Shown here piece after piece: positions 1 to 52,719 of a stretch of DNA of 58,510 nt; within the stretch, counting starts at the first letter, position 1, and every line of letters begins with the position of its first letter. The translations under genes and the position numbers were made by a program. Below the pieces are notes generated by a model, which saw nothing but the letters and a program-made list of their open reading frames with translations, did no database searches and had not been told where the DNA came from. Source of the DNA: a virus. Lineage: Duplodnaviria; Caudoviricetes. Where the stretch lies: the IMG/VR virus record IMGVR_UViG_3300049479_000276, positions 1-58,510 of that record, one strand, 5' to 3'.

Positions 1-511
1 CACCCTGCCTGCTTATGTGTATCGCGCTACCATCTCCGTTGCCTCTGGCTGGGGTGATGGCCGCGTTGCCTCCGGTGTGTATGCCGCAACTGGTAACGTC
101 ATCTCCTTTGGCCGCAGCAATGCCGGTAGCCCTACCGCTGCCTCCGGTATTGGCGAAGCTGTTATCCAGGCAAACCTGACCTCCACCGTGTCTGGTTCTC
201 AGGTTGGCGAAATCTTCTTCGCCGCTGGTTCCGCTGCTTACAGCGCTAACCCCTTCCTGATCGCCTCTGGTGCCGCTGGTGTGACCGCCGGTAACGTGTA
301 CTACTCCGCTACCGCTTCCACCACTCTGAAGGTGTTTGCGAAAGAAACTGCAAACAGCACCGCAACCTCTGGTGGTTTCTATATCTCCAGCGGTGATTCC
401 ACCGGTGGCCGCACTGGTTACCTCGTCGTCGAAGCCTGCTACATTCAACCTGATGAAGCCCCTGGCTACGAAGACATTGATGGTTACCTCCTGGGCCGCA
501 CCGTTAGCTGA
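1..511 (+). CDS. 5'-truncated Gly/Ala/Ser-rich putative virion structural protein
   Basis: Frame is open from the window edge (TLPAYVYRAT...); strongly biased codons (gct, ggt, tcc) suggest high expression. Confidence 0.6.
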   Translation, partial: TLPAYVYRATISVASGWGDGRVASGVYAATGNVISFGRSNAGSPTAASGIGEAVIQANLTSTVSGSQVGEIFFAAGSAAYSANPFLIASGAAGVTAGNVYYSATASTTLKVFAKETANSTATSGGFYISSGDSTGGRTGYLVVEACYIQPDEAPGYEDIDGYLLGRTVS

Positions 512-522
512 TTGAGTTAAAC

Positions 523-547
523 TAAGACCAGTTAATCACTGGTCTTA
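523..547 (+). promoter_or_regulatory. Start-codon-sequestering hairpin with adjacent -10-like box
   Basis: Perfect 10-bp stem taagaccagt/actggtctta ending on the A of ATG547; TAAACT at 518-523. Confidence 0.6.
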
Positions 548-975
548 TGTCAACCACGGCAGCAATGCTTTATCAGCACAAAAAAACTGGCGCTCGAGTC
601 AAAGTCATTAGCGAATGGGATCAAGGCGATTGGTTCATGGTCGAAGATCAGGATGGTCGCCTTTTTACCGTTTACAGAACTGAGATTGAGCCCGACGAAG
701 AGGCTACTAAAAAGGTAAAGACTCTTCAAGTAAAAGATAAGGCAGCGCAAGAAGAACCACGTACCTTTCCTCCGGACGCACGTTTAAACATCAATGGCGC
801 TACCGCTCAAATGATCGCTGATCATATTAAGGGTATCGGCTTGAAGACAGCGCGAGAGATTAAAGATCTTCAGATGTCCTTATCGGGTGAAAGGTTTAAC
901 AATCTCGAACAGCTAAAACAGATCAAAAGGGTTGATTGGGACGCGGTCTTTGCCGCTGACTTGATCCGTGTATAA
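547..975 (+). CDS. ComEA-like helix-hairpin-helix DNA-binding protein
   Basis: RLNINGATAQMIADHIKGIGLKTAREI...FNNLEQLKQIKRV matches the HhH_3 pattern. Confidence 0.75.
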   Translation: MSTTAAMLYQHKKTGARVKVISEWDQGDWFMVEDQDGRLFTVYRTEIEPDEEATKKVKTLQVKDKAAQEEPRTFPPDARLNINGATAQMIADHIKGIGLKTAREIKDLQMSLSGERFNNLEQLKQIKRVDWDAVFAADLIRV

Positions 976-996
976 CTAACTCCTTCTGTAGATACA

Positions 997-1024
997 CCCC
1001 TGGGAAACCGGGGGTTTTTATTTT
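997..1024 (+). terminator. Intrinsic terminator
   Basis: cccctgg-gaaa-ccggggg followed by a T run. Confidence 0.8.
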
Positions 1025-1029
1025 AGAAT
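1024..1029 (+). promoter_or_regulatory. -10-only promoter hexamer (representative of a genome-wide set)
   Basis: TAGAAT 23 nt before ATG1053. Similar TAnnnT boxes precede starts at 1730, 4087, 6807, 10223, 11222, 14400, 16239, 18223, 18580, 25397, 32351, 33391 and 43736. Confidence 0.6.
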
Positions 1030-1052
1030 GAAGGATAAAAGATCATCGTGAT

Positions 1053-1718
1053 ATGGCTGGCATTACGTTTAAAGGACGTGTTGGTTCCACTGGTAGATCA
1101 ACTGGGCCGCATTTGCATGTTGAAGTACAAGATCTTGCAACGGGCGCCTTTTTAAATCCTGAAACAATTCGTACCCCTTTAAGTGGATTACGCATTGGTG
1201 AGAAGAGGATTCCAGCATTAATTCAAACACCAGAAGGAAAATTTACATTTAATCCTGAAGCTGGTATTACCATTACGTCTAAATACGGCCCCCGTGGAGG
1301 AAGGCAACACAAAGGTGAGGACTGGGCTTTACCAGAGGGTACTCCAATCTTTTATGAAGGTGCCGGTAAGTACGTTCCTCTAGCCAACCAAGGAGCTTAT
1401 GGAAACCTTTCTACGTTCACTACAGGAGACAATAAATATCAAATTCGCTTAGGGCATATGCAATCCCTGGGAGAGGCGGCAGATCTTTCTCAAGGTTCAT
1501 CCACTGCTAATACCAGTGCATCAAATTCTTCTGATTTCCAGGGGATGCTATCTGGTTATCTCCTCGGTTCTTTACTGAGAGGCGAACCAAAAGAAGATCC
1601 AAAAACACAAATGATGCGAGGGTTTGTTAAAGAGCTGGTACAACCACAGCAAAATGATATGGCCGGTGCTTTGTTCCAGCAGTTATTATCATCATCCACT
1701 GGTGGACTGTTTGGTTAA
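1053..1718 (+). CDS. M23 family peptidase, apparently circularly permuted
   Basis: GSTGRSTGPHLHVEV (HxH) at the N-terminus; ITSKYGPRGGRQHKGED (HxxxD) and RLGHM downstream. Confidence 0.8.
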   Translation: MAGITFKGRVGSTGRSTGPHLHVEVQDLATGAFLNPETIRTPLSGLRIGEKRIPALIQTPEGKFTFNPEAGITITSKYGPRGGRQHKGEDWALPEGTPIFYEGAGKYVPLANQGAYGNLSTFTTGDNKYQIRLGHMQSLGEAADLSQGSSTANTSASNSSDFQGMLSGYLLGSLLRGEPKEDPKTQMMRGFVKELVQPQQNDMAGALFQQLLSSSTGGLFG

Positions 1719-1757
1719 TTCAGTTCATCTATAATTGAGAACATACGGAAGTAAGCT

Positions 1758-2219
1758 GTGCAGCTCAGCGATTTTGACAAGAGTAGGGTCCGGTATCACC
1801 TGGGCTACTTCACGGTTTCCGTGCCGGCGGGCGACTTCGCCCGACTTGAAGAAGCGATGAATACCGTTCCGGATTCATACTTCTACGACAAAATCGTTAT
1901 TCAGATTGGTCGTTGTGACACGGCCGAGAAGAAAACAGAAGTTGCTACATCGCCTTCCACTCGGTTAGAAAGCATCGTTGGTGATGTAGACCGTACAATT
2001 CGGTCTAGTAATGCCAAAGAAGCTCTCAAGGTTTGGGATGAGATTTATCTCTACGAGACCAACCGTTTAGCCGGCATCCTTTACGTACCTAACTACAAGG
2101 ATCCGTTCCAAGCTCGTTACCGTTACGAGCGTTCAGGCGCTGAATTTATTCAGGCGCTACCAGGCCCGGCTGATACGGCTGTGGGTTCACGCATTTATTT
2201 ACATGAGGTTTGGCGCTAA
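1758..2219 (+). CDS. Hypothetical protein, possibly head-tail connector
   Basis: 153-aa ORF in the structural block with a -10 box upstream. Confidence 0.55.
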   Translation: MQLSDFDKSRVRYHLGYFTVSVPAGDFARLEEAMNTVPDSYFYDKIVIQIGRCDTAEKKTEVATSPSTRLESIVGDVDRTIRSSNAKEALKVWDEIYLYETNRLAGILYVPNYKDPFQARYRYERSGAEFIQALPGPADTAVGSRIYLHEVWR

Positions 2220-3166
2220 TGTCTCTTCTTAATATCCTGAACGCGATTCCAGCGGCGGCAAGTCGCTTTGGTGGATCCGTCATTCAACAAGCACCAAAAG
2301 CCGCAGCGCGTGTACCACAGGCGGCTCGTGGTGTAGGCTTTGATCCCTTGAACCAAGTACCTGCATTCTTTAGTCGTTTTGGCGGCTCCGTTATCCAATC
2401 CCCTTCTGTGCGGAATGTACAGTCTTTGCGGGGAATTGTCCCTGCAGCGGGAGCCGGTATGGCGGGTTTTTCTGGCGCAGCCCTAGACCCCCTGCTGCGC
2501 GGCAGTCAATACGTGCAACAACAGCTTCAGGGTTTTGGTACAATTCCAAAACCGGGTCAAGCCAAGCCTAAACCTACTGAGGGATATAGCAGTTACGGAA
2601 CATATACCGTCGGGGGCATTGAGTATGACATTAATAGCGGTCGTCCTACATACATGCCCCCTGGCTCTGCGTACCCTTCTAGCTCTGTGGCTCCCTTCAC
2701 ACCCTTCAAAGAAGGTAGTAGTACTGCGGCCGAACGTGCGTATCAATCAGAAAAGGCAAGTGTAGCTCAACAAGCTGCGCAGAACCCTGAACTTCAGCGT
2801 TATGAGGCTGCTCGCCTGAAAGCCGTAGCACCTGGCGCAACAGCAGAACAAGTGCAATCTGCAGAAGATATTGGCATGCAGATGTGGGCAAAAGCAAATC
2901 CAACTCTTGCCGCCAAAGTCAAGCCTGGTCAATCCGGTTATGACGCCATTCAAGGAGCCATGGCAGGGCAAGCGGCTTCTCAAGGTCTTGGCTATCAGTT
3001 GCCACAGCAGATGATCTTTACGCCTCCTCCTGGCGTCAATACTCCTCAAGGTTTACCTGCCGTGGAATCCATTGGGCCTTCTGCTACCTATGGCGCTCAA
3101 GGCATTGATATTGATCCCGAAATGCGTAAGAAATTTCAAGCTTTACTTAATGAAGTAAAATCTTGA
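2219..3166 (+). CDS. Ala/Gln/Pro-rich putative internal virion protein
   Basis: ATG overlaps the upstream TAA (taatg); internal repeat SRFGGSVIQ x2. Confidence 0.55.
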   Translation: MSLLNILNAIPAAASRFGGSVIQQAPKAAARVPQAARGVGFDPLNQVPAFFSRFGGSVIQSPSVRNVQSLRGIVPAAGAGMAGFSGAALDPLLRGSQYVQQQLQGFGTIPKPGQAKPKPTEGYSSYGTYTVGGIEYDINSGRPTYMPPGSAYPSSSVAPFTPFKEGSSTAAERAYQSEKASVAQQAAQNPELQRYEAARLKAVAPGATAEQVQSAEDIGMQMWAKANPTLAAKVKPGQSGYDAIQGAMAGQAASQGLGYQLPQQMIFTPPPGVNTPQGLPAVESIGPSATYGAQGIDIDPEMRKKFQALLNEVKS

Positions 3167-3169
3167 TTC

Positions 3170-3198
3170 ATTGGCATTGCGCTGCATGTAAGCCCAAT
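3170..3198 (+). ncRNA. Leader motif family 2, divergent copy
   Basis: attgg-CA-t-tgc gct gca-t-GTAAGC-ccaat; same architecture as copies at 55943, 57043 and 58072. Confidence 0.45.
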
Positions 3199-3252
3199 CC
3201 AACTGGACACGAATCTTTGATTCACGGGGGCCAGTGTTGTTGCTTTAAAACA

Positions 3253-3369
3253 ATGATCCTTTGTCCCAATTTTGTTAAGCGCCTTGCCGCCAAACTAAGC
3301 CTGGTTGTTGCAGTACAAGCAGTCTTTATCCCCGGCCTCAAAGCACAATCAAATTGGGTAGGAGAATAG
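3253..3369 (+). CDS. Small hydrophobic, signal-peptide-like protein
   Basis: MILCPNFVKRLAAKLSLVVAVQAVFIPGLKAQSNWVGE; ends 4 nt before the lysozyme ATG. Confidence 0.4.
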   Translation: MILCPNFVKRLAAKLSLVVAVQAVFIPGLKAQSNWVGE

Positions 3370-3373
3370 TCCG

Positions 3374-4072
3374 ATGGCAGATCGTAAATTCTACGAACAA
3401 TTTAGACAGACGCCAGAAGGACAAGCCTTGCTGCGAACCATTCGTTTTGCAGAAGGCACAGAACGTGGTGGGCCAGATTCCTATCGAGTCATGTTTGGTG
3501 GTTCTTTAGCGCCAGATCTGAAACGCCACCCAGATGTCGTAATGAAAGGCCGTAGCACTGCTGCAGGAGCCTATCAATTCCTTACGCCAACCTGGAATGC
3601 CGCACAAAAGAGACTAGGCCTCACATCTTTTGGTCCTGTTGAGCAAGACATTGCAGCACTTGACCTGGCTCGTTCTCGCACAATGGGTCTTGGCGGTCTG
3701 TCTTATTTGCAGAAACAAGGATTAACACCTGAGTTTGTTTCTGCCCTGGCGCCAGAATGGGCATCATTGCCTACCAAAGAAGGTAAGAGTTATTACGGGC
3801 AGCCCGTTAAGCCGTACCAAAAATTACAAGAAGTCTATAGCCAGGGCTTAAAACCTCTTCAGACTACTGACCAAGCTTCGCAAGGTCAGCAACAAGACAT
3901 GTCTAGTAATGACTTCTTGAAAGGTTTTATGGCGGCAATGTCCGGCAGCAATACCAAAGAAGCGTCCATGAAAGATCTCTTGAAAGAAAGATTGGCAATG
4001 GAACTGTTTTCCCCTCAAACCATGGCAGGACCCCTTGATTTTTTGTCAAGCTACCTTAATCCGTACGCTTGA
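3374..4072 (+). CDS. Lambda-R-like (GH104) lysozyme/transglycosylase with C-terminal tail
   Basis: ALLRTIRFAEGT...STAAGAYQFLTPTW...FGPVEQD...LAPEWASLP...SYYGQP. Confidence 0.85.
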   Translation: MADRKFYEQFRQTPEGQALLRTIRFAEGTERGGPDSYRVMFGGSLAPDLKRHPDVVMKGRSTAAGAYQFLTPTWNAAQKRLGLTSFGPVEQDIAALDLARSRTMGLGGLSYLQKQGLTPEFVSALAPEWASLPTKEGKSYYGQPVKPYQKLQEVYSQGLKPLQTTDQASQGQQQDMSSNDFLKGFMAAMSGSNTKEASMKDLLKERLAMELFSPQTMAGPLDFLSSYLNPYA

Positions 4073-4115
4073 TTGAAAACAAGCTTTATAATGTAAACAA
4101 GTAGGAAGTAGAACA

Positions 4116-32699: not shown

Positions 32700-33185
32700 A
32701 TGGAAACGTTACCTTTAGATTTTAATTTTTTAAACGCACGCTTTGTGATTGACAGCTCCTCTCCTAGCGGTTTAAAAACTAAAGCAGGCAAAAATGTAGG
32801 TTATAAAAATAAACAAGGTTACTGGAAGACAAACATAAATAAAAAACAATACTCTGTACATCGAATTATTTATGTGTTAAAAACAGGAAAAGATCCCAAG
32901 AATTTGGAGGTGCATCATGTTGATTTTTTAGACAATTCTGGAGAGCTTGTAGCAACGACAACAAGCAATAATCGATTGGCTAGACGAAGTCATCGAGGAT
33001 CTAGTAAGTATAAAGGTGTCCATTGGTTTAAACCTAGGAATCGATGGAAATCGCAACTTCGCATTAATGGAAGAATTATTCATTCGCGTACATTTAAAAC
33101 AGAAAGAGAAGCAGCTTTGGATTACAATGAAGCTTGCAAAAAATATATAGAACAAGAGTATTGGGTTTTAAACGATGTCGAGTGA
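32700..33185 (+). mobile_element. HNH-AP2 homing endonuclease gene
   Basis: YSVHRIIY...EVHHVD...SSKYKGVHW...RWKSQL...EAALDYN; AT-rich. Confidence 0.8.
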
Positions 33186-33593: not shown

Positions 33594-33707
33594 GTGGAGC
33601 AATTCAGCTCTAGGGGTAATAGTCGAAACCCCTTCCACGTTACGAACGTGGTGCTCAGTAAAGCGTAGAAGGAAGCTATGATCCCGGTATAACAACCGGG
33701 ATTTTTT
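33594..33707 (+). ncRNA. Candidate ~115-nt structured sRNA or attenuator
   Basis: TGnTATCCT at 33580; three consecutive hairpins; terminator atcccggt/accgggat plus T run. Confidence 0.55.
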
Positions 33708-34364
33708 GTGGCATATCTCAACCACAACCTACCGACCTTCACTTGCTATATACGCAACGAGTTTTTGTACAACCACAAGCAGGGTCATGGCGAGGTAACA
33801 CTTTGCGACGTCCATTCTGTTGCCTCCCTGGAGAAACGCGTCCCATTGTTTGAGGTGTTCTTAGAGAATGGCGTCAACTGGACCCGCCGGCCGATCCATG
33901 CGTTGTGCTGGAAGCCAGATGCTCCAGTCCCCGCTTTGAACGAGTGTATGTGGTGGGATTGCTTCTCCCCCTACATTGATGTACAGGTGCGCTCACGTCT
34001 TGCCAACTTACGCGCAGAGCTAATTAACTATCGCGGAGAAAAAAATCAAGGCGTCTACATGTTTACTTTGGATTGGTCTTGGGAATCCAAGTCAACTCTC
34101 AACACTAACTTCAGTGAAACACCTGAGCACAAGTGTGCACATTTCTTTCGCATGGACAATGGAAATTTTTATGCGTATCCCAATAACAAAATTATTTGGT
34201 ACGATGACGCCTGGCTACGCAACCGGATTGATAAAAACCCTGGCTACGAGATTGACCTGAATGAGTACAGTGTTGAAAACTCACGGATGATTGAGACGTC
34301 AGATCGTTTCATGTATGACATACTTTTAAAGTACCGTGATGTAAGTTGTGTGTATAATATGTGA
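33708..34364 (+). CDS. Conserved phage hypothetical protein
   Basis: YLNHNLP...YIRNEFLY...PIHAL..WWDCFS...EHKCAH...FYAYPNN. Confidence 0.7.
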   Translation: MAYLNHNLPTFTCYIRNEFLYNHKQGHGEVTLCDVHSVASLEKRVPLFEVFLENGVNWTRRPIHALCWKPDAPVPALNECMWWDCFSPYIDVQVRSRLANLRAELINYRGEKNQGVYMFTLDWSWESKSTLNTNFSETPEHKCAHFFRMDNGNFYAYPNNKIIWYDDAWLRNRIDKNPGYEIDLNEYSVENSRMIETSDRFMYDILLKYRDVSCVYNM

Positions 34365-34785
34365 GTTCCCCCTCTCTTTTCGATGGGGCTCAGTTGGCCG
34401 CTGATGCGCCGGGGACCGATTCGGCAAGCGCGAAGGCTGGGCGACTCGTTAGGCAGATAGCCTAGAAGGAGAGCCCAAGATAGAGGTGCAGTCCCTGCTT
34501 GGATACGCCTGGTTAACTCACAGCCCGATTGTCGGTACGCCAGTCACACTGCATCCATCTAATTAAGGGTCCAAGCATGGTGCATGCTTTGGTGTAAAAG
34601 ACTGACGCCTCCGGCTTCGGACAGCCAACCGTAAGGTTTAGGTCAGCGCCCTAATTTAAAGGGTACAACAAGGAACGTTGTATTAAACGAAGGATCCCCT
34701 CGGCCGCATCGTAGATTCACCGTTAAGTTTGTGGTAACACAGCCCTAGCGATGGTCGGTGAACGTAGGCGGACATCCTCGCCCTA
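34363..34785 (+). ncRNA. Large (~420 nt) highly structured ncRNA candidate upstream of tRNA-Pro
   Basis: No ORF >=60 aa; TATAAT at 34353; more than 10 helices including a long-range closing helix, two GUAA tetraloops and potential pseudoknots. Confidence 0.75.
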
Positions 34786-34789
34786 ATAC

Positions 34790-34861
34790 CGAGATGTAGC
34801 GCAGCGGTAGCGCATCTGCTTTGGGAGCAGAGGGTCACAGGTTCGATCCCTGTCATCTCGA
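34790..34861 (+). tRNA. tRNA-Pro(UGG)
   Basis: Acceptor CGAGATG/CATCTCG; anticodon arm tctgc-tt-TGG-ga-gcaga; GGTTCGATCC; CCA not encoded. Confidence 0.95.
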
Positions 34862-34914
34862 TATAACAAACATCAATAAACGCCTTATATTAATTACACG
34901 AATAAAATTTATGA

Positions 34915-35169
34915 ATGGCTTGGGCTGACGCCAAGAAACGTATTGATAAGAATAGAAAGAAGCTGCTGGAGTACAAGCAGACTTTGCAGTGCGAGAAGTG
35001 TGGGCTGGATGATCATCGTGTCCTTGAGTTCCACCACGTTGGAGACAAGGATAACAATGTCTCCAGCATGGTAAACCATGGTTATGCCTGGAGCAGGGTA
35101 GAGGATGAGATTAGTAAGTGTATTCCACTATGTTGCAACTGCCATAGGCTTGAGCACTGGGTTAGTTAA
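34915..35169 (+). CDS. Small HNH endonuclease
   Basis: CEKCG...VLEFHH...EISKCIPLCCNCHRLEH. Confidence 0.8.
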   Translation: MAWADAKKRIDKNRKKLLEYKQTLQCEKCGLDDHRVLEFHHVGDKDNNVSSMVNHGYAWSRVEDEISKCIPLCCNCHRLEHWVS

Positions 35170-36632
35170 CGACCAAACATTCCTAAAGCACCAAGCCGTT
35201 TTTTCCAGGTATTTATTGCATTACCTAAAACAGCTTGTGCTTGTGTTGCAAAGTTACCTTCACCAGCCACAGAGCCTCGCGGTACAATTACAGGTTTACC
35301 ATTTTTATATGCAATACCTTGATTTGTATACCGTCCTTGTGGATTAAGAACTGTATTGCTTCTTGTATCAACAAATTCCCCCCTGGGACCAAGGCGTTCG
35401 ATTGCTGCTGTAGGAGCACCACCTAAGTTTTCCGCGCTAATTGGATCAGTAACAGCCGTTACAACAGCTTCTTGAGGTGATGCGCCTAATGCATAATTAA
35501 TTCCAGCATCTAATAGCAATGCTTTAGATGCTGGTTTAACAGAGGAAACTGCAACTTGTGGGGCAGCACGCACAACTCTTACTGGAGCACCAAGTGATCC
35601 GCGTCCTGCTAATACATTACGACCAATTAAATAATTTCTTGTGCCAATAGCTTTTTGGAAAGGAGTAAAGTCTTCGGCTGGTTTTGTAGCAAGTGCGCTT
35701 GCTGGTGTTGGGTCAAGTTGATAAAATTCCGTATATGGTTGAAGAGGAAGTAACCGTTCTGAACCAGTAGTAAAACGTTGAACACCTTTTGATTCAAATC
35801 CATAGCCAGTGTTATATCCTTGATTGCTTAAAGGTCCCGCTAAACCTTCTGTTTGATAAAGATCTGCCCGCCAGTTAGGATTTCTTGCGTTTTTTTCTGG
35901 TACAGGTGTAAGCGTAGACACACCACCAAAAGGACCTTGCGTTTCAAAAATTTTATTTTTGAAATTTTCTAGTACTTCTTGTTTAAAGTTTGCAGGTTTA
36001 TCCGTAATGTAGCCGCGTTCTTGCCATGTTCTTGGTGTTTGAGGGTTACCACTATAATCTCCGATATAGTCAGATTGATTTTGTATTTTATCTAATTTTT
36101 CTTGTAGTCTTTCCGGTTGTTTTCCATAGTAAGGATCGTTTCTGATTTCATAGTTTGTTTCGTAATTAATACGATCTTGTATATTAGGTCCTGTTGCGAA
36201 ACTATAATCATTTCCTGCGTTTTTTGGAACCCTAAAATCAAGAAGAAATTGTCTTGCAGCAGGCGTTAAACTACCAGATCCAAAGTCTTTGGGTAAAACA
36301 CCAAAAGTCATTTGCCAAGGTTGTCCTGTGGCAGGGTTAATAACACCCGGCATGTTTGTTGTTTTATAGTCATATCCTATTGATTGATCAATACCACCAA
36401 CAGCAAAATTAGGACGATCAAGCAATGGCCTTAAAGAAGACGTTGTAAGTTTATTTGCAGCTTCGACAGCATCTAATAATTCTTTGTCATTTGCAGGAAT
36501 TCCTTTGCGCCCAACAACGTTCCCTTCACCGTAAAAATCAAGAATCTCTTGATCAGTTGTTGTCTTGCGAAGATAATTTGTTAAAAAGTTATCTAGTTTT
36601 TGTTGGAGATTTTTAACTGGTTCAGACATCAA
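35166..36632 (-). CDS. Hypothetical protein
   Basis: 488-aa AT-rich ORF with no recognised motif. Confidence 0.6.
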   Translation of the reverse strand: MMSEPVKNLQQKLDNFLTNYLRKTTTDQEILDFYGEGNVVGRKGIPANDKELLDAVEAANKLTTSSLRPLLDRPNFAVGGIDQSIGYDYKTTNMPGVINPATGQPWQMTFGVLPKDFGSGSLTPAARQFLLDFRVPKNAGNDYSFATGPNIQDRINYETNYEIRNDPYYGKQPERLQEKLDKIQNQSDYIGDYSGNPQTPRTWQERGYITDKPANFKQEVLENFKNKIFETQGPFGGVSTLTPVPEKNARNPNWRADLYQTEGLAGPLSNQGYNTGYGFESKGVQRFTTGSERLLPLQPYTEFYQLDPTPASALATKPAEDFTPFQKAIGTRNYLIGRNVLAGRGSLGAPVRVVRAAPQVAVSSVKPASKALLLDAGINYALGASPQEAVVTAVTDPISAENLGGAPTAAIERLGPRGEFVDTRSNTVLNPQGRYTNQGIAYKNGKPVIVPRGSVAGEGNFATQAQAVLGNAINTWKKRLGALGMFGR

Positions 36633-52633: not shown

Positions 52634-52719
52634 TGGTACAGACAGAGAGACTTGAACTCTCACGGCCAATGGCCTACGGATTTTAAGTCCGTTGCGTCTA
52701 CCTATTCCGCCATGTCTGC
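52634..52719 (-). tRNA. tRNA-Leu(UAA), intronless
   Basis: GCAGACA/TGTCTGT-A-CCA; anticodon arm acgga-ct-TAA-aa-tccgt; long variable arm; gagag-TTCAAGT-ctctc. Confidence 0.95.

Follow-up and report, generated by a model that had tools for sequence, protein, structure and literature searches.

Positions 34353 to 34861 of the virus record IMGVR_UViG_3300049479_000276 in IMG/VR contain a non-coding stretch that leads, on the + strand, into a gene for tRNA-Pro. The complete record, which is linear, 58,510 nucleotides (nt) long and ~74% complete by the CheckV estimate, was analysed and is referred to here as the window. On the left the region borders on an open reading frame (ORF; 33708-34364, +) of phrog_3704, an auxiliary family labelled 'ferredoxin', whose final codons contain the -10-like hexamer TATAAT (34353-34358, +), a putative promoter element, and which ends just past it. 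On the right stands the tRNA-Pro gene (34790-34861, +), which has the anticodon UGG and no encoded CCA, and which was identified by ARAGORN and by the Rfam tRNA model (70.4 bits). The intervening 425 nt (34365-34789) hold no ORF of at least 60 amino acids, only overlapping frames of 34, 33 and 57 residues, and the G+C content of 34300-34899 is 0.50-0.555, compared with 0.395-0.445 in the upstream and 0.41-0.475 in the downstream flank. The ORF list and the G+C profile thus bear out an earlier note, made from the letters of the window, that had singled out an ORF-free, GC-richer stretch beside tRNA-Pro. Along the stretch lie, in order, the -10 box, a 5' hairpin, five modules designated Z, X, Y, B and C, and tRNA-Pro. 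Comparison with related viral contigs, denoted below by L numbers, indicates that the stretch is a mosaic of small, separately conserved RNA modules and not one large fold. The -10 box, the 5' hairpin, the leader of interchangeable modules and tRNA-Pro(UGG) very probably form a single recurrent architecture.

The earlier note interpreted the region as one ornate RNA of ~420 nt. This interpretation did not survive comparison with relatives of the window, in which the parts occur apart and covariation supports local modules only. Window positions 34351-34566 are 91-93% identical in L009 and L050; in L009 the homologue of this segment abuts module C directly, with no tRNA after it, and in L050 an element resembling the abiF RNA motif and a tRNA-Cys stand between the segment and C. 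Positions 34562-34652 are missing from both of these close relatives. A tRNA splits the module array in L050 and in L102 and, across the relatives, modules are separate, reordered, nested or divided by tRNAs. Indeed Z, X, Y, B and C also populate the tRNA-array spacers of estuarine and freshwater Synechococcus phages and of related uncultured phages. The alignments show the boundaries of the modules, their separate occurrence and the covariation of the 5' hairpin, X, Y and C (for B, in one homologue).

Module C (34659-34783, +) is predicted to adopt a three-way junction composed of P1 (GGG/CCC), P1a and an arm of P2, P3 and P4. The module is usually ~82 nt long; the window copy measures 125 nt, and has a ~45-nt hairpin inserted at the tip of P4 (~34716-34762). 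Among 47 distinct copies, 27 have a 5-nt tip and 15 carry other insertions, of 18-48 nt, at this point. A helix that the earlier note had drawn as ttcaccg/cggtgaa is present as this extension of P4, but it is specific to the lineage, as other loci carry other insertions there. When 34340-34800 was compared with 50,697 isolated-phage records by blastn in distant mode, the only match was a 58-60-nt piece of the region (34658-34717) in two Synechococcus myoviruses, S-CREM1 and DSL-LC03, in which it lies in a tRNA array, just upstream of a tRNA. A 20-mer of C is present in 55 IMG/VR stretches, and in total the module was found in ~86 public viral and metagenome-assembled genome (MAG) contigs. The context of C was analysed with ARAGORN in 58 sequences (the 55 stretches, the two phages and the window): in 25 a tRNA 3' end lies 9-15 nt ahead of the search 20-mer, whose first base is 7 nt into the module, and in 36 a tRNA begins no more than about 10 nt 3' of C.

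The structure of C is supported by two alignments. In A1 (29 distinct sequences; L044 and L049 omitted for a mismatch to the end pattern) 99.7% of 609 cells pair and six pairs contain double changes, against 38-53% of cells paired when the 3' partners were moved by 1-3 columns. A covariance model, R1, recovered 30 further copies in other loci, and matched the window copy, the only one in the record, over all 82 model positions (95.1 bits, E 1.5e-20). Alignment A4 (47 distinct sequences) drew on 51 sources, one per distinct sequence group plus most R1 matches; it regained L044 and omits L102, L107, L077, L084 and L103, whose scores and lengths equal those of included rows, together with the incomplete L093 and L117. 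In A4, whose fitting to R1 favours structure, pairing extends to 99.3% of cells, and double changes (107 cells) affect 11 of the 21 pairs; cell counts of this kind overstate independent events as many contigs are closely related. None of 500 shuffles reached the observed values, and the slid controls paired in 38-48% of cells. P1 never varies, and its pairing is a prediction. The window copy displays P1a, P2, P3 and P4 and the conserved loops that characterize the family. The consensus contains nearly invariant unpaired segments, namely the hairpin loop AAGGAAC of P1a, the junction UUAAA and the asymmetric loop UCCCCU, and the arm a nearly invariant symmetric internal loop, CGUAG/CGUAG. The C alignments confirm the previously proposed helix tacaac/gttgta, which is P1a. 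A proposed 3' hairpin, ggcg/cgcc, has to be abandoned because it is incompatible with P3 and P2, which covary, and with the P1 strand, which is invariant.

Hairpin X (34438-34478, +) consists of covarying outer stems, an invariant inner stem UUAGG/CCUAG and the loop CAGAUAG. Its 20-mer is present in 66 viral stretches; in 32 of 68 extracted copies X stands alone, with a tRNA 3' end 9-10 nt upstream. In L087, L094 and L071 it is nested inside the loop of Y. Within alignment A3 (29 sequences) 95% of cells pair, compared with 24-52% in the slid controls, and double changes occur at six of the eight outer pairs, in agreement with the tgggc/gccca helix enclosing taggc/gccta that had been recognized in the window; the inner stem and the loop are invariant within this set, from which four of 33 distinct 41-mers (L069, L074, L079 and L081) were omitted for their tRNA-like context. 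In an X variant of contig L187 inner-stem changes are compensated and the loop is unchanged. A tRNA-like gene at L069 4133-4173, L074 559-599 and L079 5557-5597, called tRNA-Ile by ARAGORN in L069 and L074, also has the X 20-mer as its anticodon arm, with the loop CAGAUAG and lacking U33; L081 (12042-12082) is grouped with these, the 20-mer again lying in a tRNA-like gene, and the contigs are not tRNA arrays. Judged by its sequence, X may be derived from, or mimic, an anticodon stem-loop.

Module Y (34478-34561, +) comprises AGAUAGAG, an 8-bp stem, UCCCUG, a variable insert, ACAC, the second stem strand and CCAUC(UA). The stem, noted previously as ggtgcagt/actgcatc, held up well: in alignment A2 (17 sequences of 39-82 nt, after four of 21 pattern matches, of 68, 98, 108 and 145 nt, were left out as lacking stem and core) 98.5% of stem cells pair and five of eight pairs show double changes. 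Y lies immediately 5' of tRNA-Pro in several array types (L064, L147/L160 and L138/L143). Module Z (GCUGAUGCGCCGGGGACCGAUUCGGCAAGCGCGAAGGC; 34392-34437, +) is predicted to form a local hairpin. It is 94-100% identical across 18 loci, too invariant for covariation to support the hairpin, which remains a prediction. A 29-nt piece of Z stands alone in L044, and Z is missing from L033, L061, L080 and L107, which retain the 5' hairpin followed by X and Y.

Module B (34566-34653, +) appears to be a closed multi-hairpin domain, AGGGU...GCGCCCU. Its sole homologue, at L187 1257-1341, is 87% identical over 85 nt and lies 1.5 kb from module C of the same array; an exact 20-mer of B had no match among the viral contigs. 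The first hairpin of B, previously described as ccaagcatg/catgctttgg, contains two compensatory pairs in this single homologue, and the earlier proposal stands to that extent. L187 is a MAG contig labelled Microbacteriaceae that contains 24 tRNA genes in 4 kb (247-4103), separated by long structured spacers that include the B homologue, the X variant and a module C, and has the appearance of a phage tRNA array that was assigned to a bacterial MAG during binning.

The 5' hairpin, GAGUUCCCCCUCUCUUUUCGAUGGGGCUC with the pyrimidine-rich loop CUCUCUUUU (34363-34391, +), occurs once in the window. A 16-mer of it was found in 80 sequences (79 viral stretches and the window). The full hairpin is present in 47 of these, and the remaining 33 appear to match by chance. 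A C-G pair of the stem in 32 of the 47 loci is exchanged for G-C in the other 15, which bears out the helix gagttcc/ggggctc. In 45 of the 47 a hexamer of the TAnAnT type lies 5-8 nt upstream of the hairpin, despite differing upstream genes, and in 25 a tRNA-Pro follows, at +81 to +485; six of the 22 loci with no tRNA-Pro have less than 450 nt of sequence past the hairpin. In its minimal forms the leader contains a single module, Y with tRNA-Pro at +81 (L147/L160) or C with tRNA-Pro at +115 (L142/L144). Longer versions have Z, X and Y before a tRNA-Pro at +172, Z, X, Y, B and C before one at +425 (the window), or Z, X, Y, an abiF-like element, tRNA-Cys and C before one at +452. There is no terminator-like site on the + strand of 34365-34789. 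By its sequence features the stretch therefore qualifies as the 5' leader of a tRNA precursor, running on one strand from the putative promoter to the tRNA with no terminator between. In L009 the tRNA-Pro and 6 nt are exactly missing, and both sides are colinear with the window (L009 ~700-710 versus window 34784-34866). The tRNA-Pro thus behaves as a cassette, with a precise insertion in the window or a precise deletion in L009.

Known RNA families do not account for the stretch. A search of the whole window with Rfam 15 (cmscan, gathering scores) returned two tRNAs and nothing else, with no known large-RNA family among the results, and a search of 34200-35000 (801 nt, lax filters, E<=10) returned the tRNA and one chance match to snoR35, outside the stretch; ARAGORN found no tmRNA in the window. 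RNase P RNA, tmRNA, group I introns and known self-cleaving ribozymes were rejected, as no Rfam or ARAGORN model matched, and manA and wcaG were rejected as the identity of the stretch, as neither has an Rfam match in the window, although both occur in related arrays. The abiF model (RF03085) had no match in the record at E<=1, a weak test as 14 control genomes were equally blank, and a regular expression for the abiF halves (CCCCYUAUGC ... GAUGCANAAACCNGRGGG) matches relatives but not the window. None of the modules C, X, Y, B and Z has a match in Rfam 15. Folding energy is equally uninformative: the stretch as a whole folds with an unremarkable minimum free energy (z -0.56), and among the module values (X -4.5; 5' hairpin -1.95, which is weak; Z +0.75) only X clearly stands out. 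As folding energy is no better than chance, the case for structure must rest on comparison with relatives. The homologues with covariation that the earlier note had called for were found in related phage contigs for the 5' hairpin, X, Y and C and, with Rfam 15 providing no match, its proposal of a structured, tRNA-linked non-coding RNA outside the described families is upheld. No published description of the modules or of the tRNA-Pro leader architecture was found, the S-CREM1 paper and Weinberg 2010 being among the texts that do not mention the modules, although the supplementary tables of PMC10690425 and PMC9964418 may list modules. What is new is thus a group of candidate structured RNAs of phage tRNA regions, an already known kind of element.

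The modules were also encountered in RNA libraries. Contigs of 102-413 nt from four metatranscriptome runs, belonging to four studies, fall on the modules. The 347-nt contig X23 record 7 corresponds to 34439-34782, spanning everything from the start of X to the end of C except that B is replaced by a different 66-nt element; X22 record 4 includes B, flanked by the tail of Y and the 5' half of C; and a third contig contains the -10 box and 5' hairpin, 248 other letters, an insertion-free module C and the start of an abiF-like element. Modules and tRNA are covered separately, and none of the contigs listed bridges 34783 to 34806. In the four runs no contig fell on 33700-34362 or on 34873-34974 and a single one, of low depth, on 34993-35171, a lack of cover that carries no weight as evidence. 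Contigs of this kind cannot prove transcription or locate ends. At the level of sequence they repeat the mosaic picture in independent samples.

The relatives of the window also carry described RNA motifs between their tRNA genes. In related arrays the Rfam-scored motifs manA (RF01745), wcaG (RF01761) and abiF (RF03085) occupy inter-tRNA slots (matches to one or other in L010, L020, L082, L088, L092, L097 and L116, and in the annotation of S-CREM1). These motifs resemble the present modules in using the same slots; they differ in that none is found in the window, and C, X, Y, B and Z are distinct in sequence and fold and match no Rfam model. In L001 (S-CREM1; 2202-3024), L010, L088, L092 and L116 manA and wcaG stand between tRNA genes with no downstream ORF, a context that, as a matter of sequence, fits free RNAs better than mRNA leaders. 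The abiF motif is seen immediately 5' of a tRNA in an array. Relatives of the leader contain an abiF-like RNA that has both halves of the motif and an insertion of 20-55 nt in its loop; it lies either in the slot between Y and C that the window fills with module B, or behind C. An RNA with two abiF motifs (RCd22) is reported to neutralise an AbiF toxin by direct binding, in the manner of a type III antitoxin (PMC12373285). Many arrays also contain, beside module C, a recurrent tRNA-like gene, GGUAGUCUAUUGGUAAGGAC...GGUUCGAUUCC (L010 9896-9967, L088 559-630, L001 ~2422-2493, and L050, where it is called tRNA-Cys). It scores only 32.6 bits with the Rfam tRNA model and is given as His, Leu or Cys by ARAGORN, depending on the locus; its sequence suggests a non-canonical anticodon arm. 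CCA is unencoded in all tRNAs examined. Cyanobacteria process CCA-less tRNA precursors with RNase Z.

On balance we consider it probable that 34353-34861 is one phage transcription unit in which an expandable tRNA-Pro leader delivers trans-acting RNAs. Transcription would start from the TATAAT box and cleavage by RNase P at 34790 would free the leader; for modules that lie between tRNAs, 3' processing of the upstream tRNA would also contribute to release. Once freed, the modules would act in trans as small stable RNAs, most likely as decoys for host factors, RNA-targeting defence proteins among them, or as their binding partners. The invariant loops, together with the parallels to abiF and to the small RNAs of phage T4 and the anticodon-arm likeness of X, make trans-acting small RNAs the most economical reading. 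A counter-defence or decoy function is a tentative suggestion by analogy, favoured because the same cassette slots in relatives hold an RNA antitoxin motif of the abiF type.

Several observations weigh against this proposal, in addition to the bias of A4 and the relatedness of the contigs described above. A consensus promoter scan did not call the TATAAT site because a good -35 element is absent. At 16 of the 47 loci with the 5' hairpin no tRNA-Pro was called within at least 816 nt past the hairpin, and the tRNA leader is thus the commonest context but not the sole one. The window itself has no abiF motif, and the abiF-like elements with insertions go unscored by Rfam at E<=0.1, being named by their shared halves alone. 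The RNA-library contigs may derive from DNA and cannot show ends or abundance, and one of them, X23 record 6, reaches past the -10 box, to 23 nt ahead of the 5' hairpin. No partner, target or host homologue emerged: the 20-mer of C, written with one degenerate position, Y, gave in species-representative genomes just two MAG contigs, L187 and L186, both phage-like; in L186 four tRNA genes lie beside the module. It should be emphasized, finally, that transcription, processing and stability of the modules are inferred from sequence.

It could be argued that the modules are cis-acting parts of the leader that serve the tRNA precursor only, by insulating tRNAs from misfolding, providing RNase entry or stop sites, stabilizing the 5' end or tuning the amount of tRNA-Pro, and that they are functionless once cut off. 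The fixed, short spacings are consistent with such a role (9-15 nt from the upstream tRNA to the 20-mer, 3-9 nt from the end of the module to the next tRNA), as are the immediate adjacency of Y to the 5' end of tRNA-Pro in several unrelated kinds of array and the presence of a 5'-terminal hairpin, a classical RNA-stabilizing feature. The unpaired segments AAGGAAC, UUAAA, UCCCCU and CGUAG/CGUAG of C and CAGAUAG of X, however, are nearly invariant while the stems covary, which argues for specific recognition rather than generic spacing. Furthermore, modules occur with no nearby tRNA in L009, L033 and the L070 group, the last of which has the 5' hairpin followed by Z, X, Y and C and no tRNA-Pro within 816 nt past the hairpin, indicating that the modules do not simply accompany the tRNA. 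A purely cis-acting leader is thus unlikely.

It is improbable, to a greater degree, that the stretch is one RNA of ~425 nt that folds as a whole, held together by a Z:C closure and a pseudoknot between the Y loop and B, and acts as a single particle of the GOLLD or ROOL kind. GOLLD and ROOL, whose Rfam entries we take to be RF01998 and RF03087, respectively, are phage-borne, ORF-free, structured RNAs that lie next to tRNA genes. In these respects the stretch resembles them; they differ in that each is one whole conserved fold of about 500-800 nt, whereas the stretch, at 425 nt, is about half as long or less and its parts are independent. GOLLD and ROOL were rejected as no covariance model matched even at E<=10, and as the parts are separable, reordered and nested in relatives; the suggestion of a compact GOLLD/ROOL-like relative has accordingly been dropped. 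A single fold would fit the shared strand of all modules and the lack of any terminator-like site among them, and an RNA-library contig does join X to C. Z is, in addition, complementary to UCCCCUCGGCCGCAUC in C (13 pairs and a bulge), and the matching CCGC variant of C is present in eight of nine 5'-hairpin extracts that show both Z and the C strand (10 with L009). The 3' partner of this closure, which the earlier note had placed between 34403-15 and 34695-710, is, however, the covarying local P3 strand of C. In L009 that strand is altered (CCAC/GGUGG; G>A) and the change is compensated inside C, Z being unchanged; Z occurs without C in five of 17 Z-bearing extracts with the 5' hairpin, and C without Z in most of the ~86 loci. 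The proposed pseudoknot, tgcttgga/tccaagca, fares no better, as its partner B is absent from relatives that keep Y and are otherwise complete. The energies of the two duplexes are within chance, being reached by 207 of 500 dinucleotide shuffles for the closure and 59 of 500 for the pseudoknot, and both pairings were rejected. The division of the array by a tRNA in L050 and L102 is likewise difficult to reconcile with a single particle.

Very improbable, finally, is the view that the modules are evolutionary debris or selfish mini-elements (by-products of recombination or homing endonucleases, tRNA remnants or mobile palindromes), for although HNH genes flank the locus and a GIY-YIG gene lies in the S-CREM1 array, modules are inserted, nested and precisely deleted in relatives, and the X 20-mer doubles as an anticodon arm in the tRNA-like genes of L069, L074 and L079, compensatory double changes preserve stem pairing in C, X, Y and the 5' hairpin and the loops stay invariant, from T4-like cyanomyoviruses to far smaller contigs, a pattern that points to purifying selection on RNA structure and sequence, and endonuclease traffic explains shuffling, not conservation.

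The flanks of the locus contain several further features. A small HNH endonuclease gene (34915-35169) lies downstream of tRNA-Pro and a second (32700-33185) on the upstream side. One HNH endonuclease near these tRNA and non-coding RNA regions carries an AP2 domain, and the GIY-YIG gene of the S-CREM1 array is located at L001 873-1304. Possibly the HNH and GIY-YIG genes at these arrays encode homing endonucleases and thereby promote the cassette-like shuffling. Directly upstream of the ORF at 33708-34364 lies a hairpin of terminator-like form with a run of T (33680-33703); L005 and L023 have hairpins of a similar kind (CCCCGG...CCGGGG-T) ahead of the promoter and 5' hairpin. The second tRNA gene of the window, tRNA-Leu(UAA) (52634-52719, - strand), has no module C, 5' hairpin or X nearby. 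For one virion protein of the record, the most similar counterparts are those of Puniceispirillum phage HMO-2011 and of Synechococcus myoviruses.

The proposal that an expandable tRNA-Pro leader delivers trans-acting RNAs has partial precedents. In the tRNA region of T4 two small RNAs are transcribed, whose role is unknown (PMC3014915). These RNAs, RNAC and RNAD, are likewise small non-coding RNAs among phage tRNA genes, presumably matured with the tRNAs, the likeness being one of genomic placement alone. The present modules differ in being shorter, more numerous and shuffled between phages, and those of the window lie on a unit of promoter, 5' hairpin and tRNA-Pro in a ~58-kb record that is not T4-like in size. 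Theta ribozymes, which are minimal HDV-like ribozymes, adjoin phage tRNAs and are tied to tRNA maturation (PMC10879173). They and the window modules are alike in being small structured RNAs that abut viral tRNA genes. In contrast, the stretch has no Rfam match to HDV-like, hammerhead, twister, pistol or hatchet ribozymes, and module C is a three-way junction in which the nested double pseudoknot was not found. A catalogue from IMG/VR lists 8,495 candidate structured RNAs detected by covariation in viral intergenic regions, some of them tRNA-like (PMC10690425). It shares its data source and type of evidence with the present study; the available portion of its text describes neither tRNA-array spacer modules nor a tRNA-Pro leader, and its unnamed entries may include C, X or Y.

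Currently, phage tRNA clusters are usually read only as supplies of tRNAs for codon usage or anti-defence. This study extends that picture by identifying in their spacers and leaders at least four covariation-supported structures outside Rfam 15 (the 5' hairpin, X, Y and C), with B as a fifth that has one homologue. Both T4-like cyanomyoviruses and far smaller phages contain the modules, which there neighbour the motifs manA, wcaG and abiF; this suggests that tRNA processing releases a set of small phage RNAs. The manA and wcaG motifs, described as cis-regulatory motifs of 5' untranslated regions, may also act as free RNAs in phages. The cultured phages S-CREM1 and DSL-LC03 carry module C, making the idea directly testable. 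A broader and more speculative possibility, to which we give slightly less weight than to a decoy function as such, is that tRNA operons and tRNA-Pro leaders are 'RNA cassette arrays', platforms for the expression and maturation of shuffled decoy RNAs directed against host defences that target RNA, such as AbiF-type toxins or anticodon nucleases. The carriers would be phages of freshwater and estuarine picocyanobacteria and their neighbours, the repertoire would comprise C, the anticodon-arm-like X, Y, B, manA, wcaG and abiF, and RNase P together with 3' tRNA processing would release the RNAs. If true, such arrays would be the RNA counterpart of anti-defence gene islands.

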